Source: a virus. Taken from it: a stretch of 64,000 nt of DNA. The stretch is taken from the UHGV virus genome UHGV-1358930. One strand, given 5' to 3'. The stretch's first letter is position 1, and each line of letters opens with the position of its first letter. The translations under genes were made by a program, and so were the position numbers. This document shows, in pieces, positions 1 through 58,646 of this stretch. Below the pieces are notes generated by a model. The model made no database searches and was not told where the DNA came from. It saw only the letters and a list, made by a program, of their open reading frames with translations.

Positions 1-239
1 CATGTAACAGCCTATCATTTGGCGGAGTACTGACAGCACTTAATTCGGAAGTTATCTGTGACAAAGAAAAGTTCAACAAGATTATGGACATGACTCCGTT
101 AAGGAAGTGGGCTACAGCTGAAGAGTGTGCAGAATGGACATACTTCATCTCAGTTGTAAATAAATCAATGTCAGGACAAGATATCATTATCGATAACATG
201 GAAACTAGAAACAATCAGTTTGTTTGGTAAAGTATTCAA

Positions 240-300
240 AGAGAGTTTTGTATTCCTTTGAAACCCTCTCTGAAAATAAAAATAATAAGGAGAAGTAAAA
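240..300 (+). promoter_or_regulatory. Candidate preQ1-I-like riboswitch/translational leader upstream of the que operon: P1 hairpin AGAGAG(240-245)/CTCTCT(266-271) with 20-nt loop, then A-rich tail containing the SD AAGGAG (288-293)
   Basis: Hairpin + A-rich tail ending in SD resembles preQ1-I aptamers (AGAG...CCCUCU + AUAAAAAACUAAGG); located directly 5' of queF; loop longer than canonical. Confidence 0.3.
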
Positions 301-302
301 AA

Positions 303-1814
303 ATGCTAAAATCAAACAATGGAAGAACATCCGAAGACTTATCAGGAGTAACTCTACTTGGTAATAACAACACTGAGTACAACTACGACTATACTCCAGA
401 AGTTCTAGAAACATTTGTAAACAAGCATCCTGACAACGATTATGTTGTCACATTTGATGCTTATGAATTTACAAGCAAGTGTGTCACCGGAGACACTATG
501 ATAGATGTTGCATGTAATGAAACTGACAATCCGGATGGAATTCCAATCAAAGATTTGGTAGGTACAGAAGGATATGTGTTTTGTGTAGATCCCACTACAT
601 TACAACCATTATGTAGGAAGTATCGAGATGTACGAAAGACTGGAGAAAGTGTACCTGTAGTTAAAGTACTCATGCAAAGTTTGAGAACAGATGGAAAGGG
701 TAACACATACTATGAATCTTCTGAAATCAAGTGTACACCTGATCATATGATATTGGTGAAAAAAGGATTCCATGATAGCGAATGGGTGTGTGCAAAAGAT
801 CTCAAACCTGGCATGAGGTTGATTGCAAATCAAAGAAGTGGAGATGTAATACGATCTAAACTTCGACACAGACTTATTGGGGAAGCAATTTTTGATGAAG
901 ATATTATGAATATTCATCATATAGACGGTAATCATTACAATAATGACCCATCTAATCTATCTAATTTATCTTCTCATGATCATCACCATCTTCATAGATC
1001 TCAAGAATATGGATACGATAATTTAGATGTATCATACTTAGTTGATCTGTATAACTCCGGAGAAAACTTCAACTCCATAGCAAAGATGTTCAACTGTGAT
1101 GTATCTACCATTGAATCTAGAATAGGTAATATAGTTGGAAGACGGACACAATCAGAGTCATTATCACTACGAAATAACTTGTTGAATAAAGAGCGGGATA
1201 GCGAAATCTGTGAATTGTACAACAAAGGATACTTGCTATCTGAAATTGCAGATTACTTAAATATCCACAGTACAACAGTGTTAGGAGCACTAGAAAGACA
1301 CGGCATCCCTCGCAGAGAATCGAACTTCTCTAGGTACAATCGAAAGAAATTGAACCTCCCACCATTGAATCATAAAGTACTAGCTGTACTAGATGGTGGA
1401 TATGAAGATGTGTACAACATGGAAGTAGAAGGAGTTGAAAACTATTTTGCCAATGAAGTGATAGTCCATAACTGCCCAAAAACGGGGCAGCCAGATTTTG
1501 CAAAAGTTGTAATTAGTTACATTCCTAATGAGAGAATGGTTGAAAGCAAGTCCCTAAAGCTTTACCTCTTTTCTTTCCGCAATCATGGAGATTTCCACGA
1601 AGACTGCATGAACATCATCATGAAGGATCTAATTCATCTTATGGATCCGAAGTACATTGAAGTAAAAGGTATTTTTTCTCCAAGAGGAGGTATCTCCATC
1701 TTTCCCTTTGTTAACTACGCGAATCCGAAATTTAATTATCAGGATTTTGCAAAGTCTCGAATGCTGGAGGCGCTTAGAGATTCGAGCAATAGAACAGTAA
1801 GATACGATATGTGA
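303..1814 (+). CDS. queF: NADPH-dependent 7-cyano-7-deazaguanine reductase QueF (preQ0->preQ1), interrupted by an intein (ORF track start 258 is a TTG inside the leader hairpin; ATG 303 has SD AAGGAG)
   Basis: Exteins 'EFTSK|C..' and '[18 protein letters not shown]...[19 protein letters not shown]' match QueF catalytic motif E(F)TSLCPxTGQPD; intein splice signatures C...HN|C. Confidence 0.8.
480..1472 (+). mobile_element. Intein (~331 aa) inserted at QueF catalytic Cys; contains HNH homing endonuclease motif ([17 protein letters not shown]) and two HTH (sigma-70 region-4-like) repeats
   Basis: Starts '[10 protein letters not shown]' (block A), ends 'VIVHN' followed by Cys+1 'CPKTGQPD'; HNH motif HHIDGN..N. 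Confidence 0.8.
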
Positions 1815-1912
1815 AACAACGGGAAGATATAAATATAGTAAAGTCTGTAGATACGTACAGCAAAAAAAAGCAGCAAACTCTAGAATAGATTACAATTACT
1901 TAGAAAGGTTAG

Positions 1913-2656
1913 ATGAAAATGGAAAACAAAAGAAATTCAAACAAAAAAGCGTTGGTGCTCTCGTCAGGTGGAGTAGACTCCACTACTTGCGTAGGTATTG
2001 CTGTAAATGAATTAGGTTCTGAAAATGTTAGCACTGTATCGGTGTTTTATGGACAGAAACACAATAAAGAACTTGAATGCGCTGAAAAAGTAGCTGAATT
2101 TTATAATGTAAAGCACTATGTTCTTGACTTGTCTAATGTCCTTCAGTACAGCAACTGTTCTCTAATGAAGAACAGCACAGAAGAAATCCCTATGATGAGC
2201 TACGCAGAGCAGATTGAAAAGAATGGTAAACCATCAACAGAAGTTCCATTGAGAAATGGACTCATGCTCATGGCAGTTGGCTCATTAGCTATGCAACTTT
2301 ATCCAGAAGCTGATGTCGATATTTACATTGGAGCACATGCCGATGATGCTGCAGGTAATGCTTATCCAGATTGCTCTGCAGAATTCATTCAAAACGTAAA
2401 AGAAGCAATATTGATTGGATCTAGATATAAAGTTAACTTAGTTTCTCCATTTGTGAATCATAACAAATCAGAAGTTGTTAAATTAGGGTTATCTATAGGT
2501 GCTCCGTATGAATTAACAACTTCCTGTTACAATGGCAGAGAGAAAGCTTGTGGATTGTGTGGAACCTGCAGAGATCGTATAGCTGCATTCAAAGCAAACA
2601 ATGCAATTGACCCAATTGAATATGAAATTGACGACCCATTCAAAGAAATGCGATGA
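1913..2656 (+). CDS. queC: 7-cyano-7-deazaguanine synthase QueC
   Basis: PP-loop '[13 protein letters not shown]', C-terminal Zn-binding CGLCGTC typical of QueC. Confidence 0.85.
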
Positions 2657-2663
2657 TGTTCAA

Positions 2664-3260
2664 ATGGAAATATGGCGACCTGCTAAAGGATATGAAGATA
2701 AATATGAGGTGAGCAATTTAGGACGAGTAAGAAATTCAAAGCATTATATCATGAAACCACATCTACAAGATGATGGATATCTTTGGATATACCTTGCGTC
2801 TAAAACTAGTCCTAACAACACATCAATTCATAGGCTAGTTGCTAAAACGTTTATTCCGAATCCAGAAGGCAAACCGCAAGTAAATCACATAGACGGGAAC
2901 AAAACAAATAATCGAGTTGAGAATCTAGAATGGGTTACAGGATCTGAAAATGTTAAACATGCTTATGCCAATAATCTAATTGCAGACAAATCTCCTGAAG
3001 GCATCAGAAATATTGTAGCAGCAGCTAGAAAATCATTGAAGAAATATTGCAACATCCCGATAATATGTGAAACTACAGGGCAAGAGTTTGAATCTATTCA
3101 TCATGCTGCACTACATTATGATGTAGACGATACCACTATTCAAAACATCGTAAGAAATGTAACAAAAAGATCCAGAAAACTACCTGGATTGAAATTTAGA
3201 TTCAAATATCCAGAGATTACTTGTAGATCACCTCATAGAAAGAAACATTTAATTAAATAG
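2664..3260 (+). CDS. Free-standing HNH homing endonuclease (NUMOD4 + HNH_3) inserted between queC and queD
   Basis: '[11 protein letters not shown]' NUMOD4-like N-term; '[24 protein letters not shown]' HNH motif; internal Met after queC stop. Confidence 0.75.
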
Positions 3261-3276
3261 CTTTGGAGGAATGAGA

Positions 3277-3714
3277 ATGTATACAGTAAAAACAAAAGTA
3301 TCTTTTGAAGCTGCGCATCGTCTATACAATGTAGACACATACTCAAAAGAATGCAGAGATAATCTCCATGGGCACTCATACAAAGTAGAAATTGTCGTAG
3401 GCGCAGATAACTTGAACTCTGCTGGAATGGTTATTGATTTCAAGCTGCTAAAAACAGTTATTCGAGAAGAGATTGAATCTAAATATGATCATTCTTGTAT
3501 ATTGAGAAAATGCGATCCAATTGCAAATACTATCAAGGAAAACTGTAAGAAAGTTATCCTTGTTGACGAAAGTCCTACTGCAGAATGGATGGCAAAAGAA
3601 TTCTATGACATGATTGAATCTAAAGTTCATACGTATTCTTCTGATTTACATGTTGTTTCAATTGGAGTACAAGAAACAGAAAATAACATTGCGTATTATC
3701 TTCCGGAGGAATAA
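3277..3714 (+). CDS. queD: 6-carboxy-5,6,7,8-tetrahydropterin synthase QueD
   Basis: 'FEAAHRL...HGHSYKVEIVV' QueD/PTPS signature; SD GGAGGA 7 nt upstream. Confidence 0.85.
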   Translation: MYTVKTKVSFEAAHRLYNVDTYSKECRDNLHGHSYKVEIVVGADNLNSAGMVIDFKLLKTVIREEIESKYDHSCILRKCDPIANTIKENCKKVILVDESPTAEWMAKEFYDMIESKVHTYSSDLHVVSIGVQETENNIAYYLPEE

Positions 3715-3716
3715 AC

Positions 3717-4358
3717 ATGAAAGTTATCGAATTATTTAATAGTATTGATGGAGAGGGCAAACGAGCTGGTATGCTCGCTACGTTTATACGTCTGTCTACG
3801 TGCAATCTTAGATGCAGTTACTGCGATTCCGCTTACGCTTTCGATGATAAGCTTGCTGAAGAGATGTCAATTCAAAGTATTGTAGCAAACTGCGACAAAT
3901 ATGATTGTCCGCAAATTACGCTAACTGGTGGAGAGCCTTTGATTTCCAGAGACGTAGAGCTACTTTTATCCGAACTTGATTCTCATGGATATGACGTCAA
4001 TGTGGAAACAAATGGGTCTATTGATCCATCCGCATATCATAAATACAAAAATGTTTGGTTCACAATTGACTGGAAATGCCCTTCTAGCGGTATGGAGTCA
4101 AAAATGAATCCGAAAGCATTTGAAACACTTCGTGAGCAGGATGTACTAAAATTCGTAGTAGGGTCAAATGAGGACTTACAAGATGCGTTACACGTCATCA
4201 AGAAGTACAACCCAAAATGCTCAATCTATTTCAGTCCGGTATTTGGATATGATGCAAAAAATATCGTAGAATTCATGAAAGATCACAAACTGAATGATTG
4301 CAAAGTTCAGCTTCAAATTCATAAGTATATCTATGACCCGAATGCTAGAGGAGTATGA
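3717..4358 (+). CDS. queE: 7-carboxy-7-deazaguanine synthase QueE (radical SAM)
   Basis: '[10 protein letters not shown]' radical-SAM Cys triad; QueE-like length. Confidence 0.85.
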
Positions 4359-4951
4359 TCAAAGAAGGTGTTGATATGAAAAATATTGATAAAAACAAAA
4401 TTGAAAAGCTGACAAGAGAGCTCTTAGTAGCTTTAGGCGATGATCCTGACAGAGAAGGGTTGAAGAAGACTCCAAGTCGAGTTGCAAGAATGTGTGATGA
4501 ATTATTTGAAGGTATGACACATTCGAATCACGAGATAGCTGAAATGTTCAATACATGTTTTGAAGATGTAAAAACTGGAGATCTTGTAGTGGAGAGCAAT
4601 ATTCCGATTCACTCCTGCTGCGAACATCATCTCATGCTGATGTATGATATGTCAGTAGCTATTGGATACATTCCAAATGGTAAAGTTATCGGATTATCTA
4701 AGCTTGCTAGAATTTCTGACATGGTTGGAAAGCGACTTCAGTTGCAAGAACGAATCGGTTCAGATATCGCAGATATTCTCCACGAAATTCTCAATACCAA
4801 TGACATCATTGTTGTCATTCAAGGAAAGCACGGATGCATGACAGCACGCGGCATTAAATCAAGAGAAGCAATAACTCGAACAGCTACACTTAGAGGAAGA
4901 TTTGAGTCAGATTCAGATCTACGATCCGAATTCTATTCTCTCATCAAATAA
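4355..4951 (+). CDS. folE: GTP cyclohydrolase I FolE
   Basis: '[10 protein letters not shown]' FolE active-site motif; ~190 aa. Confidence 0.85.
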
Positions 4952-4990
4952 CTTACTTCTGGATACAGATAAGTAGATTGAATCGTTAAT

Positions 4991-5026: not shown

Positions 5027-5077
5027 TATACTTAGTTAAATTTTACGAAAATAATCTAAAGAAATGAGGTCAAATAA

Positions 5078-8058: not shown

Positions 8059-8712
8059 ATGGATGTAGTAAAGAATATGCGTGGAAGTATTTGGTGGTTG
8101 AAAGACGAATTTGATAAATACAAAGGTGAAAGAGGCATCCTTAGAGGTTCTAGGCCGGTTATCATTATGAATAATCCAGCAAACGAATATAATGATTGCA
8201 CTATTACATATTTGCCGATTTCTAAGTGCGAATCTCATGCTGGTGATGATAGTCGAATTCAAATGTTTTATCAGGTACCTATTCAGATTCCTGGTAATAA
8301 ATCTAGTTATGTATGTTGTAATAGCATCATGACTACAACTACTTCTCATCTTGGAGAATATGTTGGGCAGATTTCAGAAGATAAGCTAAAAGAAGTCGAA
8401 GCCGAATTGATGCGTTATCTTTCTCTTTCTGAAAAAGTCGTTACACGAGAAGTAATAAAAGAGGTTAGGGATACAGACAAGGCAACGAAAACAACTTCTT
8501 TTTCTATTACAGACGCTGTCGCTTGTCCAGAACTCAAAAAAGTATATTCTAGTTGTACTGAAATGGCTAAAGATCTTAACTGCTCTCCTGCGTCTATCAG
8601 CAAGTCGAGTAGATGGGGAAGTAAGCTGATGCACAAATACACAGTGTTTAAAGTAGCAACGGCTGCTGGAAACTATGTTTGCAAAACTAAGGAGGAAATC
8701 AAAAATGAGTGA
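8059..8712 (+). CDS. Hypothetical protein
   Basis: 217-aa ORF. Confidence 0.4.
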   Translation: MDVVKNMRGSIWWLKDEFDKYKGERGILRGSRPVIIMNNPANEYNDCTITYLPISKCESHAGDDSRIQMFYQVPIQIPGNKSSYVCCNSIMTTTTSHLGEYVGQISEDKLKEVEAELMRYLSLSEKVVTREVIKEVRDTDKATKTTSFSITDAVACPELKKVYSSCTEMAKDLNCSPASISKSSRWGSKLMHKYTVFKVATAAGNYVCKTKEEIKNE

Positions 8713-15191: not shown

Positions 15192-15768
15192 TTGTATATA
15201 TACACCATATTGTACATACAAACAATGCGACTTAGCTTGTCCTAATAGAGCTGAAGTGAATTGTTGGTTCAAACGATGCCGACTTGATATGTCAAATAAT
15301 TGCTTGCATACTAATATCCGAAATATTGAGAAAGCCGAGGATCTACTAAGTAACAAGTATGGAGAAACTGTGTGGTTTCCCACAGATAATCCTTCAGATG
15401 CAAGCGACACTATTTGCTACGTAGCTATTTGCAAATATGGTAAAGGTACTGCTCTTGGAAACGGAATATACAATCTGGATTTTGCAAAATTTATAGATAT
15501 GATCAAGGAGTCCTGGAATACGCATTTTGAAACAGATAACTTAATTCAGATGCGTGTGTGGTCTTTGTCTGCAAATTACCTAGTTATCTCAAATCTAGAT
15601 TATGTTAGATTTCAAGATTTTGAAAGTCAAACGTTGCTAAGGCTTCTGAATGATCGAAGAGATTATACAAAGACAACTGTAGTAGTTACTAGTAAAGAAC
15701 CTTTGGTCGGCAGCGGAAATTTCTTTCCTAGATTGACTTCTTTGCTAAAGGGGGTCAAGAGCAATTGA
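15184..15768 (+). CDS. Hypothetical protein (194 aa), possibly replication-associated
   Basis: Immediately precedes dnaB with overlap. Confidence 0.4.
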   Translation: MHDCIYTPYCTYKQCDLACPNRAEVNCWFKRCRLDMSNNCLHTNIRNIEKAEDLLSNKYGETVWFPTDNPSDASDTICYVAICKYGKGTALGNGIYNLDFAKFIDMIKESWNTHFETDNLIQMRVWSLSANYLVISNLDYVRFQDFESQTLLRLLNDRRDYTKTTVVVTSKEPLVGSGNFFPRLTSLLKGVKSN

Positions 15769-18188
15769 CGAATTCAGTAGAACTTCAAGTTATTTGTAAA
15801 ATTTTAACAAGTCAAGATGATTCTGAAATTGATAGGCTGTGTGCGTTTGATGAATCCTATTACGCAGTATTCAAAGATCAGATCAAATTTATTCTAGATC
15901 ATAGAGAAAAATATCATACTGTCCCAGACTTGTTTACGTTCCAAGCTCAATTCGAAGACATTGTTTTGATTGATGTAAACGAATCTGCAGATTTTTTAGT
16001 AGACGGACTTCGGAAAAACAAGCAGCAGATCATACTCTTACAAACATTCAATAAGCTATCTGAGTTAGGTTCTGCAGACGTTTCTGAAGCTTGGCAGTTC
16101 TTACAATCCCAATGCGACAAAGCTGCTCAACTTGATAATTCTAACCCGATGGATATCATCAAAGAAGCTCACAAGCGAAGTGATCAAGTTTTATCGCTAA
16201 GTAATCAAACAAGAATTCCTACAGGATTCAAAGAAGTAGATGAAACAATGTATGGAGGATTGTCAACTGTTGAAGAACTTTGTCTTGTAGTTGCTAGAAC
16301 TAACACAGGTAAAGCTCAGCCTCTTTGGAGTAATATCTTAACACCTACTGGGTGGAAGCGTATGCGAGATATTCAAGTAGGAGACATTGTATGCGGTAGA
16401 GATAATGACAATGGTAAAGTAGTTCAAATATTTCCGCAAGGTACAATTGACTACTATCGTGTAAAGTTTGATGATGGTACTTATACGGAGTGTTCTGCAG
16501 ATCATCTTTGGGAAGTTCTGGATAGTGAACGAAGGAAGCATGATAGAAAAACTTATGGTCAGTATCTTACATTGACTACTCGAGATATTCGGAATCATAT
16601 GTATCGCAGATACTCTGTTGATATGTGTGAACAAATTGAATTCGAGAGTGCTTTTGATACAGATAGTGAACTTGACGGATATTTTTTAGGAGCATTTATC
16701 GGGCATGGTAGAAATGTAGGTAACAAGCTATATATTCATTCTCTGTCCGATGTTTCAAAGCGACGTATAATTGATGCATTGTCTAAATATCGTTGTCAAT
16801 TCACAGAAAATGATCCAAATACACTCGTGATTGAGGATAAGAATGATGGTAAGCTTATCCAAAAGATGTTCGAGTACAACTTGATGAACTGCAAAGTCAT
16901 TGATAGACATATTCCGGATATATATTTTCATAGCCCTGTAAATGTTAGAAAAGCTCTGTTATCAGGTCTCTGCGATACAGATAGCACAATGTTATCAAAA
17001 AATCATAGAGGTTGGGTTTTCGTTACATCTTCAGATCAGCTTAAATCTGATTTTGTTTACATTGCTAGATCTTTAGGTGTAAAAGCAAAGGTGTCGACTG
17101 CAAGATCTGGTAGATGGGTTGACTTAGGTGTATCGCACGTTGCGAATACGTACCACAGGGTTATGTGTATCTCAAAATTCAATCCGTTTTATGGTTCACC
17201 AAATTACACAGAATTTGAACGCAGACAGGATAAAACTAAATTTAAAAATCGCAAGCGTGTTTGCAAATTCATTGATTCTATTGAATACGTAGGTAAGACG
17301 GAATGCCAGTGTATCATGGTAGACAATAAGACGCATACATATATTACAGATGATTTTATTGTCACACATAACACCTGGGTTACTACTAAGATGATGGAGT
17401 CTGCACAAGCGAATGGATTTCCTGTACTATATTATAGCCCAGAGATGCAATCTGCTTTCATTGGCACACGATTTGATACCTGGAGAGGTCACTTCCGAAA
17501 TAGCGATATTCAACGAGGTAAATACAGCGAAGACTACATTCAGTACATCAAAGACATTGTTAAAGAGGAAACTGGTGCATTTGTTGCAGAAGACAAAGAT
17601 ATGCCAGGAGGAAAAACAACTGTCAGGTCGATTGAAACTCTAGTCAAGCGACATCATATAAAGCTTGTTATCATTGATGGTCTGTCTTATATGGCAGATA
17701 CAGAAAAGTCTGATAGCGATGTTATTAAGTATAAAAATATATGTACTGGACTATTCCGAATGTCTAAAACATATGGATGTGCTGTAGTAGTATCTGTACA
17801 AGCTAATAGAGACACTAAATCTAATGTCGATGACAAAGGAGTCCCGTGGCCTGATATGTATTCGATTGAAGGCTCAGACCATCCAGGACGTATTGCAACT
17901 CAAGTATTTGCGCTTCGACAATTGTACGAAGAGCATACATTAGAGATAAAGCTGTTGAAGACTAGAAATGCAAAGAATGCAAATCCTACGTTCGCATATG
18001 TATGGGATCCAAATACAGGAAACACAGAGTTTGTTTCGGATGATGCATCGGCTGCTCCTCCTTCTGCTCCTGCACAGCCTAGCAAGTTCTCAACGCCGAC
18101 AGTGTCAGCAAAGATTGTACACACCGATATAGATGATAATCTAATCGATGCCAGTACAGATGACGATCTAGATGACGTTGAGTTTTGA
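15765..18188 (+). CDS. dnaB: DnaB-family replicative helicase interrupted by an intein in the Walker A (P-loop)
   Basis: N-extein ends 'ARTNTGK', C-extein resumes 'TWVTTK' reconstructing GxxxxGKT; downstream RecA-like fold motifs. Confidence 0.75.
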   Translation: MTNSVELQVICKILTSQDDSEIDRLCAFDESYYAVFKDQIKFILDHREKYHTVPDLFTFQAQFEDIVLIDVNESADFLVDGLRKNKQQIILLQTFNKLSELGSADVSEAWQFLQSQCDKAAQLDNSNPMDIIKEAHKRSDQVLSLSNQTRIPTGFKEVDETMYGGLSTVEELCLVVARTNTGKAQPLWSNILTPTGWKRMRDIQVGDIVCGRDNDNGKVVQIFPQGTIDYYRVKFDDGTYTECSADHLWEVLDSERRKHDRKTYGQYLTLTTRDIRNHMYRRYSVDMCEQIEFESAFDTDSELDGYFLGAFIGHGRNVGNKLYIHSLSDVSKRRIIDALSKYRCQFTENDPNTLVIEDKNDGKLIQKMFEYNLMNCKVIDRHIPDIYFHSPVNVRKALLSGLCDTDSTMLSKNHRGWVFVTSSDQLKSDFVYIARSLGVKAKVSTARSGRWVDLGVSHVANTYHRVMCISKFNPFYGSPNYTEFERRQDKTKFKNRKRVCKFIDSIEYVGKTECQCIMVDNKTHTYITDDFIVTHNTWVTTKMMESAQANGFPVLYYSPEMQSAFIGTRFDTWRGHFRNSDIQRGKYSEDYIQYIKDIVKEETGAFVAEDKDMPGGKTTVRSIETLVKRHHIKLVIIDGLSYMADTEKSDSDVIKYKNICTGLFRMSKTYGCAVVVSVQANRDTKSNVDDKGVPWPDMYSIEGSDHPGRIATQVFALRQLYEEHTLEIKLLKTRNAKNANPTFAYVWDPNTGNTEFVSDDASAAPPSAPAQPSKFSTPTVSAKIVHTDIDDNLIDASTDDDLDDVEF
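16314..17372 (+). mobile_element. DnaB intein (~353 aa), class-3-like (N-terminal Ala, Thr+1), with LAGLIDADG homing endonuclease motifs (LDGYFLGAFIGHG; KALLSGLCDTDS)
   Basis: Begins 'AQPLWSN' right after GK, ends 'FIVTHN|T'; block F Cys 'ECQCIMVD'. Confidence 0.65.
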
Positions 18189-18262: not shown

Positions 18263-18420
18263 ATCACACCAGATTTGAAAATAAACATTAAATACCTTTA
18301 TTTTCTTAATCTGTTCCTCTTTCAACGACCTTGCTTGACAAGTCAAGTCTTACTAGATCTCCAGAGGCGTTAATTTCCGCTTGTGCAGCGGTATTTGTTA
18401 TTTTTAGGAGAAAGCTATTC
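18263..18420 (-). ncRNA. Putative TnpB omega-RNA (reRNA) scaffold at tnpB 3' end/right end of element
   Basis: Conserved (>90% identical) in second copy at 63718-63880 while flanks diverge; position matches known omega-RNA location. Confidence 0.4.
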
Positions 18421-19540
18421 TCAAGCCCTCGTTCAATATATTCTTTGATGCATTGATATCTCTATCATGTGTTGTTTGACAATTAGGACAAGTCCAATTT
18501 CTAACTTCAAGATTTTTGACTTCTGGATTTTTGAATCCGCAACAGCTACAAGTTTGAGAAGACGGAAAGAAGGCGTCTATTTTGACAAGTTGTTTTCCAT
18601 ACCAGCTGCACTTGTAAGTCAATAGTTCAACGAATTTTGACCAGCTTGCGTCTGAAATTGCTCTTGCTAGTTTATGATTCTTGACCATATTTTTGACTTT
18701 CAAGTCTTCAACACAGATTATGTCGTGGTTTTTGACAAATTCTGTTGACAGCTTGTGCAAGAAATCATTTCGTTGATTTGAAACTTTCTCAAATTGTTTA
18801 GCAAGTCTGATTCTTGATTTGTTTCTGTTATTAGATCCTTTTTGCTTCTTCGAGAGCTGTCTTTGAAGTCTTCTTAACTTCTTAGTAGACTTTGAAAGGT
18901 ATTTCGGATTTTTGATCTTTTCACCGTCTGAAGTTATTGCGAAATCTTTGATGCCGAGGTCAATTCCTACAACAGATCCAGTTTTGTCAAACTCTTCAAT
19001 TTCAACATCTTTGCAACAGATACTTGCAAAATATTTTCCTGAAGCTGTTTTTGAGATGGTTGCCGAAAGCGGAGTTCCTTTGACATTTAAATTTCCTTTG
19101 AATTTAACCCATTTCAATTTAGGCAAGAAGATCTTGTTATCTAAACAATGAAATTGTGCAGGTGTGGAGTATGTAGCCTTATATGACTGTCTACTTGAAA
19201 GTTTCTTCTTAAATTTAGGATAACCTGGTTGCTTTCCATTCTTTACGTTTCTAAAGAAGTTTTGATACGCAGTATCAAGATCTCTAAGAGACGATTGCAA
19301 AGCCATTGCTTCAGGTTCTTTCAACCATGAATATTCGTCAAGCTTCTTGAGCTTTGTTAAATCTGCAGAATTTTGATTATATGTATTTGACTTTCTTGCC
19401 TCTTCATAATCTTTGATGGATTTAGCAAGATAGTAGTTGTAGACAAATCTGCAGCAGCCAAAGGTTTTTGCAATTTGCTCAATCTGCTGCTTGTTCGGAT
19501 ATATCCGTATTTTATAAGCTTTCAGAATCATTTTGGTCAT
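18404..19540 (-). CDS. tnpB: TnpB (OrfB) RNA-guided nuclease-like transposase accessory protein, IS605/IS607 family
   Basis: '[11 protein letters not shown]...FGCCRFVYN' N-term; C-terminal Zn finger 'CSCCGF...[18 protein letters not shown]'. Confidence 0.8.
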
Positions 19541-20132
19541 CTGAAAGTGCCTCCTTGATTTTAGCTACGCTTCTCTTAGAATACATTTTCATTGAGTAAC
19601 AGTGCAGTAAACTTACGATTTCTTCAAAAATTTCTTCAGAATCAAGTTTTTCGGATCCTAGTTGGGACGCAACAACTATCTCTGTTCCAAATTTTCTAAA
19701 AAGATGATAAAATAGATCAAATCCTACTCTAGACAGTCTGTCTTTATAATTGATAACTACTTTCTCAACTTTATATTCCAATACATCGTCTAATAGTTCA
19801 AAAAACTGTTTTCTGTTTTCAAAAGAAATTCCGGAAGCAACCTCTTGAAAAACACCATCGACTTGAATTCCGGAATTCATGCAAAAACTGTTCAAAGATT
19901 CAAGTTGGTTCGCTAGATCCGATTTTTGAGATATTGTAGAAACTCTAGCGTAGATATAATTTTTTCTTGTTTGACCGTTATTTAATATAGAGTAGACGTC
20001 TTTATCATGATAGATGCGCTTACCTGTAGGTGTTAAGTCATAATGAATGAGTCCTCTTTTGCAATAATGACCAAGTGTTGGCTGTGAAATATTCAATAGT
20101 TGTAACACTTGTTTAGCTTTCATATTGATCAC
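19512..20132 (-). CDS. tnpA: IS607-type serine recombinase TnpA (MerR-like HTH + resolvase catalytic domain)
   Basis: '[17 protein letters not shown]' HTH then '[14 protein letters not shown]' catalytic Ser motif. Confidence 0.75.
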
Positions 20133-25096: not shown

Positions 25097-26365
25097 TTGA
25101 GTTTATTTACCAAGTCACAAATGGCGAAATTCAATGAAGTTGCCGAACGAAGCAAACAGCTTAACAAAGAAAAACCAAAGTCTGTAAATGTATCTACAGT
25201 AAATGCGGAATTGAAGTCGATGTCAGATTCTGTGCTAGAATACTTCAAAGACTCCCCTGCTATCTGCATTCGAACCGCTGATCAGCTACATGAATACATT
25301 GATAAATGTATCGAAGCTGGATACGCTGGTATAGATACAGAAACAACGGGACTAGACAGACAAAGAGATTACATTGTAGGCGCGTCTTTATATTATCCGG
25401 ATGGTACAGAATGTTATATTCCGATGAAACATAAGATCCCTATTTTCGAAACTCCTTACAAAAATCAACTGTCTTATGAAGAAGTAACTAAAGAATTCAA
25501 ACGACTAGAAAACAGCAACATACGACTCATTTTTGCAAATGCTGACTTCGACTTAGCAATGATCTACAAGGATCTAAAAGTTGATTTCAACGATAGATTC
25601 TATTATGATGTTATTCTTGCATGGCGTTGTTTGAAGGAGAATGAGTTACACAATGACTTGAAATTCCTTTACAATAAATATGTATTGAAAGGAAAAGGAG
25701 ATCCTAAACGTTTTAGCGATTTCTTTTCTGTAAAGCTGTTCCCATATTCTGATCCTGAAATCGCTAAATTGTACGCAGCAAACGACGCAAAAATCACATT
25801 TCAACTGTTCAAGTGGCAGCTTCCTTATGTTACAGAAAGTCATCCTAAGTGTCAGAAAGCTCACCTAGAAGCAATATCTAGACTCATTTGGAACATAGAG
25901 TTTCCACTGGTTAAAGTCTGCCAGAATATGTATAGAAGAGGTTCATACATTGATTCTAATGTTGCTAGTGTTTTGAAAAAGCGATACAGAGATGAATACA
26001 ATGTAGAAGTCAAAAAGCTACAAGACATGGTACAAAAAATCATTGATAATACGAATATAGCATATTCAGGTAAACGTCCATTTACTAGAGGAGCAGATTT
26101 CAACCCATCTTCACCTCCTCAAGTTAAATATTTGATATACAATCTACTTCAAATTCCTAAAGGATCGTCTTCTGGAACAGGTAAAGAAGTATTGAACGAA
26201 CTTAATCTGCCTGTAACAAATCAGATACTGAAGGTAAGATCTCTATCTGTACTTATCAATACATTCGTAGAGAAGCTACCAGCTGCCGCAAGTCTGGATC
26301 ATAGAATTCATGGTCAGTTCAAGCAGGTGGGTGCAGCCACGGGCAGGTTGTCTTGTGCCGAGCCT
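25097..26365 (+). CDS. polA: DNA polymerase I (family A) exon 1: 3'-5' exonuclease domain and N-terminal polymerase part, ends '...TGRLSCAEP'
   Basis: Exo I 'GIDTETTGLD'; '..ATGRLSCAEP' = TGRLSSxxP motif; ORF then runs into intron. Confidence 0.75.
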
Positions 26366-27271
26366 AAACATGATAAATCAGATTGGGCTCGTAAAATCGA
26401 GTTAATTCAGGGAAGGGTAGCAGCTTGACGCTGTGAGATAACCCTGAGCCAAGGCTCTCATATATCTACTTAGGAGGTACACGATATGAGAAAGATTCAA
26501 TTCAATGAAGAGACCATCAATGCAATTAAAAATTTTATAGAGTCTGGTCACACAATGGAAGAGACATGTAACAGATTTACGCTCAAATACGATACATTGA
26601 AACGTGTAATGTTTGAGAACAATCTGAAGCCGTATAGAGCAGATAAATCACATCCCGTTATCTTCACTAGAGATGAGGAAAACATCGTATGTAAGCTATA
26701 TTCGACAACTTCAATGACAATGAAAGATATCTGTAAAGAAGTGAAGCTACCTGATTACGCTGTGCAGAAAATACTATCGGATAATTTTTCTGAAAAATAC
26801 AGAAATGAAAGGAAAGCAAAGCTTTATAGATTGTCCAAACGGTGCGAGAATAGTCCGTGGTTTCAGAAATACGGAGCAGACTCTTCTCAGTGGGTCGGAG
26901 GCGTTGTAGACGATGGCAACGGATATGATATGATCAAAAAACCTGAGTGGTACACAGGTAGAAAGTGTTCTGATTATGTCTTTTTACATACAGTTGTGAT
27001 GTGTGAGCACTTAGGTCTAACTGAACTTCCTAAAGGATATGTAGTACATCATATCGACGGAAACAAGAAAAATAACACAATAGATAATTTAGCGTTGATG
27101 ACCGTGTCAGGACACAGTAAGTTACATTTGTTGATGAAGAATCTATGCAAGGTGCAGAGACTATCCGAACAGGAGTAAGCGAAAGCTGAAATGCTAGACA
27201 ATGGTTGTGTATGACATCTATCATTCCTACTAGTTATACAAGCCATCGAAGATATAGTCCACAAATAATTG
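26366..27271 (+). mobile_element. Group I intron 1 in polA carrying an HNH homing endonuclease ORF
   Basis: Exon ends in U, intron ends in G; canonical S element AAGATATAGTCC at 27249-27260; exon 2 resumes 'NLMNIP'. Confidence 0.65.
26486..27178 (+). CDS. Intron-encoded HNH homing endonuclease (I-HmuI-like)
   Basis: 'GYVVHHIDGNKKNNTIDNLALMTVSGHSKLH' HNH motif; SD AGGAGG. Confidence 0.75.
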   Translation: MRKIQFNEETINAIKNFIESGHTMEETCNRFTLKYDTLKRVMFENNLKPYRADKSHPVIFTRDEENIVCKLYSTTSMTMKDICKEVKLPDYAVQKILSDNFSEKYRNERKAKLYRLSKRCENSPWFQKYGADSSQWVGGVVDDGNGYDMIKKPEWYTGRKCSDYVFLHTVVMCEHLGLTELPKGYVVHHIDGNKKNNTIDNLALMTVSGHSKLHLLMKNLCKVQRLSEQE

Positions 27272-27349
27272 AACCTGATGAATATCCCGTCGCATGCGGT
27301 TGATATTCGACATATGTTCAGAGCAACTCCCCAGAAAGATTACACAGTT
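27272..27349 (+). CDS. polA: polA exon 2a (26 aa: NLMNIPSHAVDIRHMFRATPQKDYTV; contains motif A Asp 'DYT')
   Basis: Aligns to PolA 'NLQNIPVRT...IRRAF...DYSQ'; junction inferred. Confidence 0.5.
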
Positions 27350-28710
27350 GAATCAGAAGTAGATGACAATAACGAAGTATCATTCGTTATTGATAATGGA
27401 CATGAATTACAAACATCTGAAGGATATAAGCCAGTAGTAGATATTGTTCCCGGAGATGTTGTAATGTTTGATGATAAGGAGGTATCAAGCTTAATTGTCA
27501 AAGAAGTTGAAACTAAAGGTACGTCAACCCGAGTACGTTTTGATGTCATCTGACTACAGTTTACGAAAGTTGGCTGTAGTAAAACCTTGTTAAGTCGATG
27601 AATACTTGATAGATAATTCTATAACCTAAATACAAGAATTGGTTCGACTATCAAGTTAATATCGAGCAAAATAGGACCTTTTATCTTGTTGAGTATAGTC
27701 TCTTAAAAATTGGAGGTATTCGACATGATAATATATAAAATATACAATGATGTTAATTCTAAGCTTTACATCGGTCAAACAACAAAATCGCTTGAAGAAA
27801 GAATAAATGGGCATCATTCTTCTATGATAGGAGGGCAAGATACTCATCTATATCGAGCAATGCGAAAATACGGATGGGAAAAGTTTCATTTTGAAATAAT
27901 ATCCAGAGCTGATAGTCAAGATGAATTAAATTATCTTGAAGAGTATTATATCCGTAAGTTAGATACAATAAGAAATGGATATAACATGGCTCCAGGAGGA
28001 TCAAAAAATGTTATGTACTCATCTATCGTAGCAGCTAAACATGATGCTAAAATGAGAACAGATTCTGTAAGAAAGAAAATATCAGAATCAATGAAAAAGT
28101 CTTATGCTTCACGCGGTGGTCCCTCAGAAGAACACAGGAAGCATCTTTCACAAGCCAAGAAGGAATATTATCAAACTCCTGAAAGCGAATTGACACGAGA
28201 AAGGTTTAGAAAGTCATTCAAGCTATCTCCTGAGCATTATAAGGCACTGAATGACGCGAAAAACAAAAGTGTATATTGCATAAATGAATCTAATGAAGTA
28301 GTTGCAAAATTTGATAGGGTCAAAGATGCAGCTATTTGGTGGATGTCTACTGGGTACAAAGTTAAACATTATGATCAACTTTGTGACAAAATAAAAGAGT
28401 CCAGCAAGCAAAATAGATTCATAAAGGGGCTAAAATGGTTCTATTGTGTGTAGAGACTATCGAAAGCTAGAAATTGACATTCAGAGAAATCTGTAAATGA
28501 TTTTAGGTAAATCAGGTCAGTTGAGATAACCAAGTGAGTAGAGTACAGCTCAAGTGAGTTAGCATCTGCATGATATTAGTGTAGAGTAAGCCTATTGAAT
28601 GGAAATTCAAGGGTTCATTTGAATTGGTGATAGATTCAAATGTTCAAGAGATAGTCCGGCACTCTTGGTGACAAGAGAAATGTTTAACGAACATTCAACT
28701 AATTAAGCAG
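27350..28710 (+). mobile_element. Group I intron 2 in polA carrying a GIY-YIG endonuclease ORF
   Basis: S-like element AGAGATAGTCCGG 28647-28660; shares GAGATAACC element with intron 1. Confidence 0.5.
27710..28453 (+). CDS. Intron-encoded GIY-YIG homing endonuclease
   Basis: 'IYKIYNDVNSKLYIGQTTKSLEERINGH' GIY-YIG motif + R..E. Confidence 0.75.
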   Translation: MEVFDMIIYKIYNDVNSKLYIGQTTKSLEERINGHHSSMIGGQDTHLYRAMRKYGWEKFHFEIISRADSQDELNYLEEYYIRKLDTIRNGYNMAPGGSKNVMYSSIVAAKHDAKMRTDSVRKKISESMKKSYASRGGPSEEHRKHLSQAKKEYYQTPESELTRERFRKSFKLSPEHYKALNDAKNKSVYCINESNEVVAKFDRVKDAAIWWMSTGYKVKHYDQLCDKIKESSKQNRFIKGLKWFYCV

Positions 28711-28911
28711 CAAGAACCAAAAATTTGCGCATACGTAGGTAACATCAAAGAACTTTGCGAAGGTTTTGCAAACGGGAAAGATGCTTACGCGATGATCGCA
28801 GCTGTTTCTTTCAATAAGTCATATGAAGAATGCTTAGAGTTTCACCCTGTTACGCATGAGTATCAGCCTGAAGGTAAAGCAAGAAGAACAGAATCGAAGT
28901 CCGTACTTTTG
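28711..28911 (+). CDS. polA: polA exon 2b (67 aa, ends '...ARRTESKSVLLG' = motif B RRxxKxxNFG)
   Basis: 'QEPKICAYVGNIKELCEGFANGKDAYAMIAAVSF' aligns to Bsu PolI 'IELRLLAHIADDDNLIEAFQRDLDIHTKTAMDIF'; not annotated in ORF track (no start codon). Confidence 0.5.
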
Positions 28912-29936
28912 GGTGAACGTAAAAGTTATGCCCCATATTTCAAGTTCTCGCATTAAATTTGCTTGAAATATGAAAATCTTGTGAACTACATTGCTCATAG
29001 GTGTTGAGAACACGATTAGGATATACAGGAAATGGTATATAGGTTCTCAGCTAACTGGGGATACTCAAAAGAGTGAATCCAGTGCCAAGCATCAAGTCTT
29101 CACGGAGTTCTATACCTTACATCATATCGGAGGTGTAGAACTTGAACAATTATTCATCATACATCATAACTTGTAAGGACAATGGAATGCAATACATCGG
29201 AATAACTTCTATTGGTTTAAGAAATAGGTGGTATGCACATGTTTCATGTTCTCGAAATTTAAGTAGTAATAATCCAATGTATAAGGATATGAAAGAATTT
29301 GGAGAATCCTCTTTTGAAATACATGAAATTGAATCTGGGTTATCAAAAGAAGAAGCCGATGCGCGTGAAAAGGAACTAATAAAGATTTATAATACAAAGT
29401 GGCCTAACGGATACAACTTAACAGACGGTGGATTCAAGAATGATGGACAGTTATTACCAGAAGGTCGATCGGCTAGAATATCTTGTAAGCTACGCGGAGT
29501 TCCTAAATCAAGCGAGCATAGATTGCATCTAAGTCAGTCTAGGATTGGAAAATACAAAGGAGCAGACAACGCCTTCTATGGTAAACATCATTCTGATGAA
29601 ACTATATTGAATCTTCAGAAGCTATTATCCCACGGAAAGGTTTATCAGTTAGACAAAAAATCTAAATTAGTTGTAGGCACATTTGATAGCGCAGCGTTTG
29701 CAGCAAGATACATATCTGAAAACAAATTATCTTCTGCAAAAATAGATACTATAAATGCTAGATTATGCGAAGTTATGAACAATGATAATCGTTCCGCATA
29801 CGGTTTTATGTGGAGACGCGATGAAGGTCAATCGACTAAGTATTAGAAGAGAAAATAGAGCTACTCTTCGAAGCGCAAGACATTAAGCGAGATAATGATG
29901 ATATAGTCAGCGCCACAAGTGATTGTGGACTAAGTG
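28912..29936 (+). mobile_element. Group I intron 3 in polA (splits motif B) carrying a second GIY-YIG endonuclease ORF
   Basis: Exon 2b ends ..GGT (U), intron ends ..AAGTG (G); S-like GATATAGTCAG at ~29900. Confidence 0.55.
29142..29846 (+). CDS. Intron-encoded GIY-YIG homing endonuclease (second copy, paralog of 27710)
   Basis: 'YIITCKDNGMQYIGITSIGLRNRWYAH' GIY-YIG; C-terminal region similar to 27710 ORF. Confidence 0.75.
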   Translation: MNNYSSYIITCKDNGMQYIGITSIGLRNRWYAHVSCSRNLSSNNPMYKDMKEFGESSFEIHEIESGLSKEEADAREKELIKIYNTKWPNGYNLTDGGFKNDGQLLPEGRSARISCKLRGVPKSSEHRLHLSQSRIGKYKGADNAFYGKHHSDETILNLQKLLSHGKVYQLDKKSKLVVGTFDSAAFAARYISENKLSSAKIDTINARLCEVMNNDNRSAYGFMWRRDEGQSTKY

Positions 29937-31433
29937 GTACTTTACGGACGTTCTATTCCTTCAATTGCTGATCAGTTATATGGCAAACGAGACGATATGA
30001 CAGGTGAGCAGAAACTAAAAGCAGCTCAGAAGGTGTTTGACGCAGTTATGGGAGCTTTTCCTGGACTGAAAAATCTAATGATCGGGTCTCAAGATTTTGC
30101 AAGAAAGCACGGATATACGGAAACAATTTTAGGTAGAAGACGACATATTCCAGATATGCAGCTGCCTGAATTTGAATTTAAGGCGATGAAAGGATATGTT
30201 AATCCTGATATTGACCCGACAGATATCACTACGCTGGAAAACAAAGATGAGATCCCCGAAAGAATTGTAAACGAGCTTTACAAAGAATTTAAAACGTACA
30301 AATACTACGGTCAAATCGCAAAGCGTACAAAGCAGCTATATGAAGAAGATCATATTAGGGTGATAAATAATAGACCTAAGATAAATGATGCAACTCGTCA
30401 GTGTGTTAACTGTGTTGACTTCGATACTGAGATACTAACAACAGACGGATTCAAAAGATATGACGAGGTATCTATAGGCTACACGATTATTTCATATAAC
30501 TTAGCTAAAGACTGCTTAGAGGAAGATGCCATTGAAGGTATTCATATCGATGATAGAGATGTTAAGGGATATGAATTCAATGCGCCGGAGCTATCTTGCG
30601 TATGCACAGATAATCACAGATGGGTTATTCAAGATACTCTGTATGAACACCCTGAAATCGTGACAGCTGAAGAATACGTCTGTGATTATGGTTGTCTATT
30701 CCCGATTTTAGCATCCGCTGGATCTGAATTACCTGGATCGTTTGGAGAATATTCTCAAGCAGAGTTCGGTGTATTAGCATATCTACTTTACTACAATGCA
30801 ATCAGGTTAATTGAAAACGGTACTACGTGGCTAACATTCAAGTGGAATAGCCCTAATCAGAAATCGTTTGATTCACTTATTCAGTTTCTTCGTAGCACAA
30901 AGTTTGATTATCAGATAAGTAGCACAGGTGATCCAGTATGCACAGAAGTAAAGATTGCATACAATACATTTTTATTCGATGTGTATACTAGCCTCAAGGG
31001 CAACAAACTAACCAATGAGTTTGTAAGCTTATTATCCGGTGAGCAAGCTTCTCAGCTTTGGTGGACATTTGCATACCTGAAAAATCCGGATTTAAAGCTA
31101 GATGAGAATATTTCAATTGTTTTTGACAGCTTGTCTGACGCAGATGTATTTCAGCATCTCTGCTATCGAGCAGGACATTTTAGCAGATGCATTCCGCTAA
31201 AGGATATGATTGATGCGGTAGATGAGCCACACATTGAAGACAGAATTCAGGAGCCTTCTAACAATCAATATGTAGTTACTACATATCAGCATAACACTGT
31301 CAATATGTGGGACAAGCGATATGTAAAACGAACAACATTACACGGCTGCTGGTGCGTAACTACTAACAACGGAACATGGGTTGCTAGACGAAATGGTTCT
31401 GTATTTCTCACAGGCAACTCTATTATTCAGGGT
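29937..31433 (+). CDS. polA: polA exon 3 ('VLYGRSIPSIADQLYGK...' motif B continuation, fingers/palm) containing an intein; ends 'NSIIQG'
   Basis: 'RRHIPDM' like PolA 'GRRRYVPD'; 'TRQCVN|..|SIIQG' = ERMAFNMPVQG motif. Confidence 0.65.
30412..31418 (+). mobile_element. Intein (~335 aa) in polA between '...RQCVN' and 'SIIQG' (coordinates +/- 2 nt)
   Basis: Starts 'CVDFDTEILTTDG' (block A), block B 'CTDNHRW', ends 'VFLTGN|S'; removal restores N(S)IIQG(S)AAE motif. Confidence 0.6.
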
Positions 31434-31791
31434 AGATACTTGCTGCCCTTATCTATCTAACCTTATTGCTCAAGGGTGTGCTCATATATTTGAGTGCTAA
31501 CGGTATCAGTGACATAAGACTGCTTCACGAAGCGAGAGAGATGTGAAGCTCTTCTACTAGTAGAAGATCCATAGACGAATCAGCTGACTAAGAAAGCCTA
31601 AGGTCTAATTATTCAATTAGATAGCTGGTAATACCGTGTCAAGTGCACCTTATACAGGGTGTAAAGATGTATCGACTAGCTCGCGTTGTTGCGAGGGTAG
31701 GTCTGAAGACGAGCTGCAGACTGAAATGGTAGACTGCAATTATTTTGCAGAAGATATAGTCAGGTTGTATGGAAACATGCATTGCTGCACG
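31434..31791 (+). mobile_element. Group I intron 4 in polA, ORF-less (~358 nt), splitting 'QG|SAAE'
   Basis: GC-richer structured segment; S element AAGATATAGTCAGG at 31751-64; exon ends in U, intron ends in G. Confidence 0.55.
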
Positions 31792-32301
31792 AGCGCGGCG
31801 GAACTTACAAAGATGGCTATTTTGAAGCTTGAGAACAACAAGGAATGGCAGAGAATTGGAGGAAGATTACTGGTACCTATCCACGATGAATTGCTGACAG
31901 AAGTCCCTGCACGTTATGCTGAGGAGGGTGCAAAAATCCTATCGGATTCAATGTGTGGAGCTGCAGATTTCATGCCGTTTCCAATTACATGTGACGTTGA
32001 GACTACTTATCGATGGTATGGTATGGCATATCCTTGTCCTTACAAGAAACCGAATTCTATCGACACGAATGATGAAGATGAGATAAAGTGGATTCAGTAT
32101 CATCTAAGAGAATCCGAATACCTGCTGCCAGTACTGAAGGACGAAAACGGTGAAAAACCTAGAGGTGATGCAGCCAAGGGTGTAAACGGTGTTAGAACCC
32201 CTGAAATGGAATCTGCTATTGAAGATTATATTAAATCTCGACATATTTTAAAAGAAGATTTCATTGATACTATTGATCGAGAGGTTGACATCGGCGGATA
32301 G
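31792..32301 (+). CDS. polA: polA exon 4 ('SAAELTKMAILKL...VPIHDELLTEVP' motif C)
   Basis: Matches PolA 'TAADLMKLAM...VHDELVLE'. Confidence 0.7.
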   Translation, partial: SAAELTKMAILKLENNKEWQRIGGRLLVPIHDELLTEVPARYAEEGAKILSDSMCGAADFMPFPITCDVETTYRWYGMAYPCPYKKPNSIDTNDEDEIKWIQYHLRESEYLLPVLKDENGEKPRGDAAKGVNGVRTPEMESAIEDYIKSRHILKEDFIDTIDREVDIGG

Positions 32302-39983: not shown

Positions 39984-40949
39984 ATGGACAGATATTACTT
40001 TAGCGGATCGTTGACGCAGCAGATGCATGACTATTTGGTTGCAATGCCTGACTTCAAACCGCTTGACATTTTGATTTCTCAGCTCGACAAGAGTGCAATC
40101 ACAAAAACTATTCAGTGGAAGAGAGAAGGCTTCTGCCGATCCTTATTTATCGACAGCGGTGCGTACTCAATACATACTGGAAAGGCAAAAGTTACGGTAG
40201 ACGAATACATCGATTATTTGAATTCTATAGATGATGATATTGATGTATGCGCACAACTTGATACTATTCCTGGTCATTTTGGTAAGACAAAGAACAAAGA
40301 AGACTACGAGGAATCAGCTAAAAAGAGTTGGGAAAATTTCTTGTATATGCGAACAAAACTTAAATCTCCAAACAAGCTGATGCCTGTTTATCATCAGGGC
40401 GAAGATTTTTCTGCTTTAGCTAATATGTTATCGTGGCGAGATGAAAACGGGAAGCAATTAGACTACGTTGGAATCTCTCCGTCCAACGATAGAAGCGTTA
40501 AGATGAAGGACATCTACCTTAAAGAAGTAGAAGAATTCATTGCACGTTCAGATAATCCTGATGTAAAAACACATCTGTACGGATACACTTCCATGCAGGG
40601 TCTCAGCAAATATAAATGCTATTCCTGCGATAGCATTTCGCATAGACATATTTCTGGATACTGTAAAATCTTAGTTCCGGAATTTGGAGTCATTTCCGTA
40701 TCTCAGAAGTCTAGAACTTCTAAAACAAAGTCAAATATGAGCTTCCTTGACACTGCAGATGAGTATAACAAGAAAAAAGTAGAAGAATATATCAAAAATT
40801 TAGGATTTACTTTAGATGAAGTAGTAGCATCTTCTTCTGTTCGTGTAGCTATCACTATACATGCAATTCGAGATATGCTAGATGATAAATATGTATACAA
40901 GAAAGAAAACGTGCTTAGACCTAAGAAGTTATTTAGTTTTCAAGCGTAA
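39984..40949 (+). CDS. dpdA: DpdA-like DNA-guanine transglycosylase (TGT superfamily) for 7-deazaguanine insertion into DNA
   Basis: 'SLFIDSGAYS' TGT-type Asp motif; Zn site 'CYSCDSISHRH'; co-occurrence with queFCDE-folE. Confidence 0.55.
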   Translation: MDRYYFSGSLTQQMHDYLVAMPDFKPLDILISQLDKSAITKTIQWKREGFCRSLFIDSGAYSIHTGKAKVTVDEYIDYLNSIDDDIDVCAQLDTIPGHFGKTKNKEDYEESAKKSWENFLYMRTKLKSPNKLMPVYHQGEDFSALANMLSWRDENGKQLDYVGISPSNDRSVKMKDIYLKEVEEFIARSDNPDVKTHLYGYTSMQGLSKYKCYSCDSISHRHISGYCKILVPEFGVISVSQKSRTSKTKSNMSFLDTADEYNKKKVEEYIKNLGFTLDEVVASSSVRVAITIHAIRDMLDDKYVYKKENVLRPKKLFSFQA

Positions 40950-53806: not shown

Positions 53807-53822
53807 TTGAGGTAATATATTG

Positions 53823-58609: not shown

Positions 58610-58646
58610 AGAGCAGGCAACGATTGTCTGCTCTGTTTTGCTGTTT
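58610..58646. terminator. Bidirectional terminator between convergent genes (agagcag...ctgctct + GTTTTGCTGTTT)
   Basis: 7-bp stem, T-rich 3'. Confidence 0.5.

Follow-up and report, generated by a model that had tools for sequence, protein, structure and literature searches.

A predicted class-1 intein with an HNH endonuclease module at the catalytic cysteine of QueF in a human-gut phage

Near the start of the UHGV virus genome UHGV-1358930, of which a 64,000-nucleotide (nt) stretch was analysed here (the window), the gene for QueF is interrupted by 993 nt that keep its reading frame. The locus raises the question of what this insert is, and of what it means for an enzyme to be split in the middle of its active-site loop. 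An earlier note, made from the letters of this DNA, had proposed an intein with an HNH endonuclease, inserted exactly at the catalytic cysteine. The insert coordinates that it gave (480-1472), the size of ~331 amino acids (aa) and the flanking and terminal strings EFTSK and VIVHN are exact when compared with the list of open reading frames (ORFs) and the raw sequence. We find that the insert is very probably a canonical class-1 intein with an HNH homing endonuclease, carried in queF of a ~160-kb human-gut phage with a full 7-deazaguanine DNA-modification cluster. The element is real and probably active as an intein, with splicing and endonuclease activity both predicted from its sequence.

The host protein and its catalytic cysteine

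Removal of the insert in silico restores a colinear QueF of 172 aa, which scores 165.7 bits on the NCBIfam model TIGR03139 (unimodular preQ1 synthase; cut-off 86.9) and aligns without gaps to QueF of Bacillus subtilis (4F8B, E 7.6e-67). The mature protein keeps the catalytic-cysteine loop EFTSK/CPKTGQPD, the NADPH motif ESKSLKLY and FHEDC, according to published definitions of the QueF motifs, including the NADPH motif (PMC10516641, PMC5372742). The first residue after the insert, Cys+1, occupies the column that holds Cys in 4F8B and Ala in the structure of the C55A mutant (4FGC). The thioimide of catalysis is formed by Cys55, for which Cys99 serves as a protective disulfide partner (PMC5372742). 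Thus, the spliced product belongs to the QueF family, and the claim that Cys+1 of the intein is itself the QueF active-site thiol holds.

The same loop, EFTS(L/K)CPKTGQPD, is uninterrupted in the intein-less unimodular enzymes of B. subtilis (4F8B), Streptococcus phage Dp-1 and the IMG/VR contig L004; the exteins of the window protein are colinear with 4F8B, 69% identical to the Dp-1 enzyme and 100% identical in protein to that of L004, which is one of 27 intein-less alleles. Because the intein breaks the active-site loop at the nucleophile, QueF activity would depend on protein splicing.

The 331 aa might instead be a regular part of a longer protein, either the extra domain of a bimodular (type II) QueF or part of a fusion, or else the product of a chimeric assembly. 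A weak match to Pfam QueF_N (22.1 bits, cut-off 25.6) and the existence of other long QueF fusions in the database, such as a QueF-QueC protein of 386 aa, could be taken that way. The QueF_N match, however, falls in the C-extein (residues 394-446), outside the insert; the type II model TIGR03138 reaches only 76.9 against a cut-off of 293.45, and the insert consists of HINT, HNH and helix-turn-helix (HTH) modules, with no T-fold. Assembly error is similarly contradicted, since independent ENA and Logan samples yield 6 contigs with the identical precursor, which JGI/IMG also contains (contigs up to ~162 kb), and a near-identical genome has a clean 993-nt gap at this point. The chance that any of these explanations is right appears negligible. 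The insert is thus not a normal type II QueF domain, the outcome that the earlier note had set against its own reading, and intein blocks A, B, F and G are all present.

The splicing domain

The insert starts with CVTGDT, in which Cys1 is encoded by TGT at 480-482, and ends with ANEVIVHN, the AAC of its last residue ending at 1472. Its G+C content (36.5%) is similar to that of the exteins (37.6%) and of the window (36.7%). The Pfam model Intein_splicing (PF14890) matches the window copy with 46.4 bits (cut-off 35.8) and is above cut-off in 60 of 60 homologues, while TIGR01443 (intein_Cterm) gives 16.5 bits, just over its cut-off of 15.6; the comparison with intein models that the earlier note had proposed therefore comes out on its side. 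The phmmer matches include the Spl DnaX mini-intein (E 3.9e-5) and several DnaB inteins. An AlphaFold2 model of the intein built from 59 homologues (mean predicted local distance difference test, pLDDT, 89.3) has a HINT fold, and the best structural and sequence matches of the insert are true inteins.

The residues expected to carry out splicing are conserved across the family. In an alignment of 60 sequences, with identity to the window intein down to 35%, the class-1 catalytic residues C1, H89, H330 and N331 do not vary, nor do H147 and N159 of the HNH module, and T86 and Cys+1 are conserved in at least 90%; Cys+1 is invariant in a 13-sequence alignment. Block B is T86-P-D-H89 (nt 735-746), and block F (D310-V-Y-N-M-E-V) is conserved, with D310 and V311 invariant among the 60. 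The insert thus has the Cys1 nucleophile, the T-x-x-H block B, the His-Asn end followed by Cys+1, the HINT fold and the family-model match of a class-1 intein, as that class is defined in PMC5050341.

From this residue set and the established chemistry of class-1 inteins, the following course would be expected. Translation would yield a precursor of 503 aa that is unable to reduce preQ0, its active-site loop EFTSK/CPKTGQPD being broken. Once the HINT domain had folded, an N-S acyl shift would take place at Cys1, and Cys+1, the future nucleophile of QueF, would accept the N-extein by trans-thioesterification. Cyclisation of Asn331, aided by His330, would then release the intein, and an S-N shift would restore a normal Lys-Cys peptide bond. 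The product, a unimodular QueF of 172 aa, would convert preQ0 to preQ1, a base that the DpdA-like transglycosylase of the phage would then use.

A HINT domain need not ligate its flanks, and the insert might do no more than cleave, as a HINT or bacterial-intein-like (BIL) domain, leaving the exteins unjoined. BIL domains, however, lie in variable regions of non-conserved proteins and seldom combine a His-Asn end with a +1 nucleophile in a conserved host site. The QueF insert differs on these points: His330 and Asn331 never vary in the alignment, Cys+1 hardly does, and the insert lies inside the most conserved motif of QueF, the halves of which are useless unless joined. The true inteins among its best matches also argue against a BIL domain, which we regard as very improbable. 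The parts of the class-1 intein and of its surroundings are listed in Table 1.

Table 1. Positions in the window of the split queF gene, its intein and the 7-deazaguanine genes
Feature	Coordinates	Strand	Description and basis
Shine-Dalgarno-like AAGGAG	287..292	+	10 nt 5' of ATG 303; read from sequence
queF precursor ORF	303..1814	+	ATG 303, stop 1812-1814; 503 aa; ORF list and raw sequence
queF N-extein	303..479	+	59 aa, C-terminus DAYEFTSK; matches 4F8B (B. subtilis QueF) at residues 4-54 when the insert is taken out
Class-1 intein (very probable)	480..1472	+	331 aa, Cys1 to His330-Asn331; 993 nt, in frame
N-terminal HINT lobe	480..854	+	intein aa 1-125; block A CVTGDT; family alignments, similarity to Spl DnaX mini-intein 7CFV, beta-strands in model
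HNH (HNH_3 / I-HmuI-type) module	855..1019	+	intein aa 126-180; begins HRLIGEAIF, includes H168 and H172
Two HTH DNA-binding modules	1020..1364	+	intein aa ~181-295
C-terminal HINT lobe	1365..1472	+	intein aa 296-331; block F, then block G EVIVHN; invariant residues, TIGR01443, match to C-terminal blocks of DnaB/DnaX inteins
Cys+1 codon TGC	1473..1475	+	splice-junction nucleophile and QueF catalytic Cys (B. subtilis Cys55)
queF C-extein	1473..1814	+	113 aa and stop; CPKTGQPD, NADPH motif ESKSLKLY, HEDC (Cys99-equivalent 'backdoor' cysteine); Pfam QueF E 1.8e-32, alignment to 4F8B
queC, preQ0 synthase	1913..2656	+	Pfam QueC on identical locus L001
queD, queE, folE, rest of preQ0 pathway	3271..4951	+	PTPS, Radical_SAM/Fer4_12 and GTP_cyclohydroI on L001
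DpdA-like transglycosylase candidate	39984..40949	+	phrog_887 'queuine tRNA-ribosyltransferase', E 1.2e-41

Endonuclease module, signs of homing and the QueF intein family

The HNH motif and the two HTH repeats that had been noticed in the insert are indeed present: the HNH motif can be read directly, HTH_38 matches intein residues 189-211, a second HTH lies at ~244-272, and the models agree. In the structural model, a beta-beta-alpha element at intein residues 144-177 is accompanied by two helical bundles, and the HNH core residues H147 and N159 are invariant in the 60 sequences, so that a conserved His as general base, an Asn and a distal His make up a predicted HNH-type beta-beta-alpha-metal core. 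Pfam HNH_3 matches 39 of 60 colinear homologues at E<=1e-3 (best 2.9e-11). The HNH module is also similar (BLASTP E 5e-4) to the product of an HNH gene that stands on its own 1.1 kb downstream.

Either the excised intein or the precursor would act as an I-HmuI-type HNH endonuclease guided by the two HTH modules, although nuclease activity of the window copy is inferred from these motifs. On co-infection it would nick or cut intein-less queF alleles, and repair from the intein-bearing copy would spread the element and co-convert nearby extein sequence. The phage presumably modifies its own G residues, so the nuclease would have to act on modified DNA or before modification. Known phage HNH and GIY-YIG homing enzymes do so in the case of hypermodified genomes.

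Several observations support mobility of the element. An empty site is found on the 124-kb contig L004, which is 98.9% identical to window 1-472 and 97.1% identical to window 1470-7483, with exactly 993 nt missing; the QueF that L004 encodes has the same amino-acid sequence as the spliced product of the window, and its junction reads GAATTTACGTCAAAG/TGCCCAAAAACGGGG. Over the 519 nt of extein coding sequence, the window and L004 differ at 7 positions, five of which lie within the 15 nt upstream of the junction and are all synonymous (TAC against TAT, ACG-TCA against ACA-AGC), and there are none in the next 225 nt downstream. Such a cluster is what co-conversion during homing would leave. The intein-bearing relative L002 has an intein 99.6% identical to that of the window, while its upstream flank is 97% and its queC 87% identical.

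Among 59 full-length alleles, the identities of inteins and exteins are moderately correlated (Spearman 0.60). The exceptions run in both directions: the inteins of clusters P0022 and P0044 are 97% identical in exteins of 47% and 61% identity, and P0010 and P0029 have exteins of 82-92% identity with inteins of 51%. This discordance indicates that the element has moved between divergent queF alleles.

Three observations weigh against an active homing intein. The window HNH module scores 18.3 bits on Pfam HNH_3, below the cut-off of 24.8. The cluster of differences at the junction comes from one comparison and could reflect variation of the target site instead of co-conversion. The codon used for Ser(-2), AGY or TCN, does not separate intein-plus from intein-minus alleles.

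The intein belongs to a large family. A search of 5.8 billion clustered proteins returned 675 relatives; of the top 97 clusters, 94 allowed an intein to be delimited, and all 94 have it at the same site, EF(T/S)Sx/CPxT(G/H/S/N/K)QPD. Full-length inteins of 328-341 aa make up 69 clusters, with 2 clusters of intermediate length (289 and 246 aa), 4 in which the HNH is kept and both HTH modules are precisely deleted (218-223 aa), and 18 of mini-inteins (139-183 aa). In some mini-inteins, such as that of P0042, the deletion joins LIADQR straight to NHKVVAV. The 215 aa parsed for cluster P0081 do not constitute a distinct form, as this protein is truncated and the pattern hit a Cys within it. The graded series of lengths is the pattern expected of the cycle of invasion, fixation and endonuclease decay of homing elements.

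We compared the proportions of nonsynonymous (pN) and synonymous (pS) differences instead of a formal dN/dS, as synonymous sites are saturated in most pairs. In the N-terminal HINT lobe, the HNH, the HTH and the C-terminal HINT lobe alike, pN is 0.11-0.35 compared to a saturated pS of 0.60-0.95, and because pN is well under pS in all four parts, both the splicing and the endonuclease functions are under purifying selection.

This result bears on the possibility that the window copy is a decaying intein that no longer splices, in which case precursor would accumulate, QueF would be non-functional and the phage DNA would in effect be of the preQ0 rather than the preQ1 type. Inteins do decay, shortened forms of this one exist, the HNH_3 score of the window copy is sub-threshold, and loss of QueF is perhaps tolerated, since DpdA can use preQ0 when preQ1 is missing (PMC10516641). 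Against this, the catalytic splicing residues are all intact, and invariant or nearly so across the family; the exteins are intact, their protein matching the intein-less allele of L004 in every residue; there are 0 non-synonymous changes in the 331 codons between the inteins of the window and L002; and all intein parts are under purifying selection. We therefore consider a splicing-dead copy improbable, and a functional intein the better explanation.

The family is found in public metagenomes. Window 1-8000 is identical to ENA contig L001 from sample XIEH16, taken as a human-gut metagenome, and ~12 QueF inteins were found in IMG/VR (L056-L067). Among 185,579 GTDB species-representative genomes there is one QueF intein, on a phage-looking contig of 141,940 bp binned as Bacteroidaceae. 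A mini-intein allele on a 212-kb contig and an allele from an NCBI metagenome-assembled genome (MAG) both lie in que-gene clusters. A megablast of window 1-6000 against 50,697 GenBank phage records gave no match, and tblastn of the precursor against the same records found no QueF intein: 76 records had QueF or related inteins, and 0 covered >=80% of the precursor. The closest GenBank phage QueF proteins, those of Streptococcus phage Dp-1 (69%), gut 'Bacteriophage sp.' contigs and Bacillus phage Flasso, are all intein-less. In addition, QueF-QueC fusion proteins of 386 aa without inteins are widespread (P0104-P0119), and QueF-containing proteins of 520-545 aa also exist.

The free-standing gene downstream of queF (2601..3260, +) encodes a NUMOD4 + HNH_3 homing endonuclease, with a strong match to PHROG phrog_59 and to HNH_3. 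Placed between queC and queD, with a 56-nt overlap with the end of queC, it occurs in the window, in L001 and in L004, which lacks the intein, and is absent from the intein-bearing L002; it thus varies independently of the intein. In L003, the gap between queC and queD codes instead for a Cys-rich HNH protein of another kind, joined in frame with QueD (L003:10517-11599, 360 aa).

Known inteins, genomic setting and significance

Mini- and full-length inteins of the DnaB/DnaX/NrdJ-1 type (4O1R NpuDnaB, 7CFV Spl DnaX, 8UBS NrdJ-1 and 2IMZ Mtu RecA) share class 1 with the QueF element, but they reside in different hosts, QueF being a T-fold nitrile reductase, and their endonuclease is usually of the LAGLIDADG kind or missing, whereas that of the QueF intein is an HNH with two HTH modules. 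The nearest non-QueF inteins, 25-39% identical, are in phage TerL, archaeal class-II ribonucleotide reductases, a glycosyltransferase and a methyltransferase. Those of phage TerL (Brochothrix phage BL3 gp2, Lactobacillus phage CL2 TerL and many IMG/VR contigs) are the closest relatives outside QueF and are also phage-borne. They share the CLTGDT and DVYNMEVE blocks with the QueF inteins, and some have an HNH of the HHxDxNxxNN type, but the extein and the site differ (nuclease motif NDH/C). Several TerL inserts (L037, L045, L046, L048 and L050/L051) are discontinuous in the host frame, unlike the in-frame HNH of QueF. The N- and C-terminal intein blocks of L037, L045 and L050/L051 are separated by in-frame stops. 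L046 and L048 have just one stop, after the N-terminal lobe, beyond which an HNH sequence (HHxDxxxxNN) is read in the same frame. The class-II ribonucleotide reductase inteins of Promethearchaeati and Woesearchaeota MAGs (L042 and L043) have the same block A/F signature and an HNH, and L042 has at least 3 inteins in one ORF of 1882 aa.

The I-HmuI-type free-standing HNH homing endonucleases (HNH_3, with or without NUMOD or HTH) have the same nuclease motif and the same order of HNH followed by HTH, and like the intein they are variably present among near-identical phages. The QueF-intein nuclease differs in that it sits between the HINT lobes and is translated within the host protein, with neither a promoter nor a start codon of its own.

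The earlier note had called the insertion site unusual, and this claim stands in part. A QueF host is apparently unreported, as a literature search that combined QueF, deazaguanine and queuosine with inteins found no QueF intein, the co-occurrences being unrelated, and the main survey of phage QueF never mentions inteins (PMC10516641). As to the type of site, however, insertion at an active-centre residue, with a conserved functional residue as the +1 nucleophile, is typical of inteins. Phage inteins in active centres are documented (PMC5050341), and this very site is shared by ~94 metagenome clusters. Thus, the novelty appears to lie in the host protein, or extein, the element itself being of an ordinary, well-known type.

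To our knowledge, QueF is not in the classical InBase list. The sources label these precursors simply as '7-cyano-7-deazaguanine reductase'.

The genes around queF are in the order SDR, queF, queC, HNH gene, queD, queE and folE; in L001, a Vut_1 (YhhQ-type precursor transporter) gene, SDR and a weak PRTase match lie just upstream of the window. The window also encodes a T4-like portal, RecA, a clamp loader, primase, DnaB and PolA, which together with the que cluster mark its source as a large tailed phage that has a system for 7-deazaguanine modification of DNA. The DpdA-like candidate, which has no Pfam match, would insert the deazaguanine base into phage DNA, as judged from its PHROG match.

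Other mobile elements and repeats occur in the same window. A second intein of 353 aa (16314..17372, +) lies in the P-loop of a DnaB-like helicase ORF (15765..18188), at ARTNTGK/AQPLW...FIVTHN/TWV; it starts with Ala, has the class-3 triplet Trp (ADHLW), Cys (ECQCIMVD) and Thr (VTHN), carries a LAGLIDADG-type Hom_end domain (Pfam, 25.8 bits) and is missed by Pfam Intein_splicing. Directly downstream of the helicase gene is an IS607-like pair (18404..20132, -), made up of TnpA (19512..20132), a serine recombinase with Resolvase and MerR HTH domains, and TnpB (18404..19540), with OrfB_IS605 and a Cas12f1-like TNB. The family-A DNA polymerase (25097..32301, +) is in at least 3 ORFs, 25097-26428 (exonuclease and start of the polymerase), 29934-31460 and 31636-32301, with an HNH_3 ORF (26486-27178) and two GIY-YIG ORFs (27710-28453 and 29142-29846) between the first two pieces. 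Rfam models, run over the whole window at the gathering threshold, returned nothing, including no group I intron near the fragmented polA. Three large paralogues have DUF7487 repeats (53820..55958, +; 58645..60303, -; 61066..62817, +), the third of which also has a DNA N6/N4 methyltransferase domain, and a PemK/MazF-type toxin domain protein (8059..8712, +) is encoded downstream of a dCMP-deaminase-like gene (L001 annotation).

The intein might be kept as a conditional, redox- or timing-sensitive switch rather than as a selfish passenger only. The sole hint of a redox switch is that the catalytic thiol at Cys+1 is prone to oxidation and has a known disulfide partner in Cys99, and we think a switch quite unlikely. 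Were it correct, a disulfide between Cys1 and Cys+1 could stall splicing, so that the phage would time the conversion of preQ0 to preQ1 and hence determine which 7-deazaguanine enters its DNA. In this view, the mini-inteins of 139-183 aa, which have no endonuclease and are fixed at this position in other large phages, would represent the domesticated form.

With a class-1 homing intein as the favoured reading, the intein catalogue gains a new host and a new site, in the T-fold nitrile reductase of a 7-deazaguanine DNA-hypermodification pathway. The QueF inteins offer a natural series for work on splicing and protein engineering, from HNH-bearing through HTH-deleted forms to mini-inteins of as few as 139 aa, all with a Cys+1 junction, and, in uncultured gut phages, a clear case of homing in nature, with an allele that is empty between flanks of 97-99% identity and 97%-identical inteins in exteins of ~50-60%. 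Surveys of phage QueF could mis-align or discard precursors of ~500 aa that are labelled as a plain reductase. For the phage itself, the anti-restriction chemistry of its DNA, preQ1 as opposed to preQ0, would hinge on a post-translational self-splicing event.

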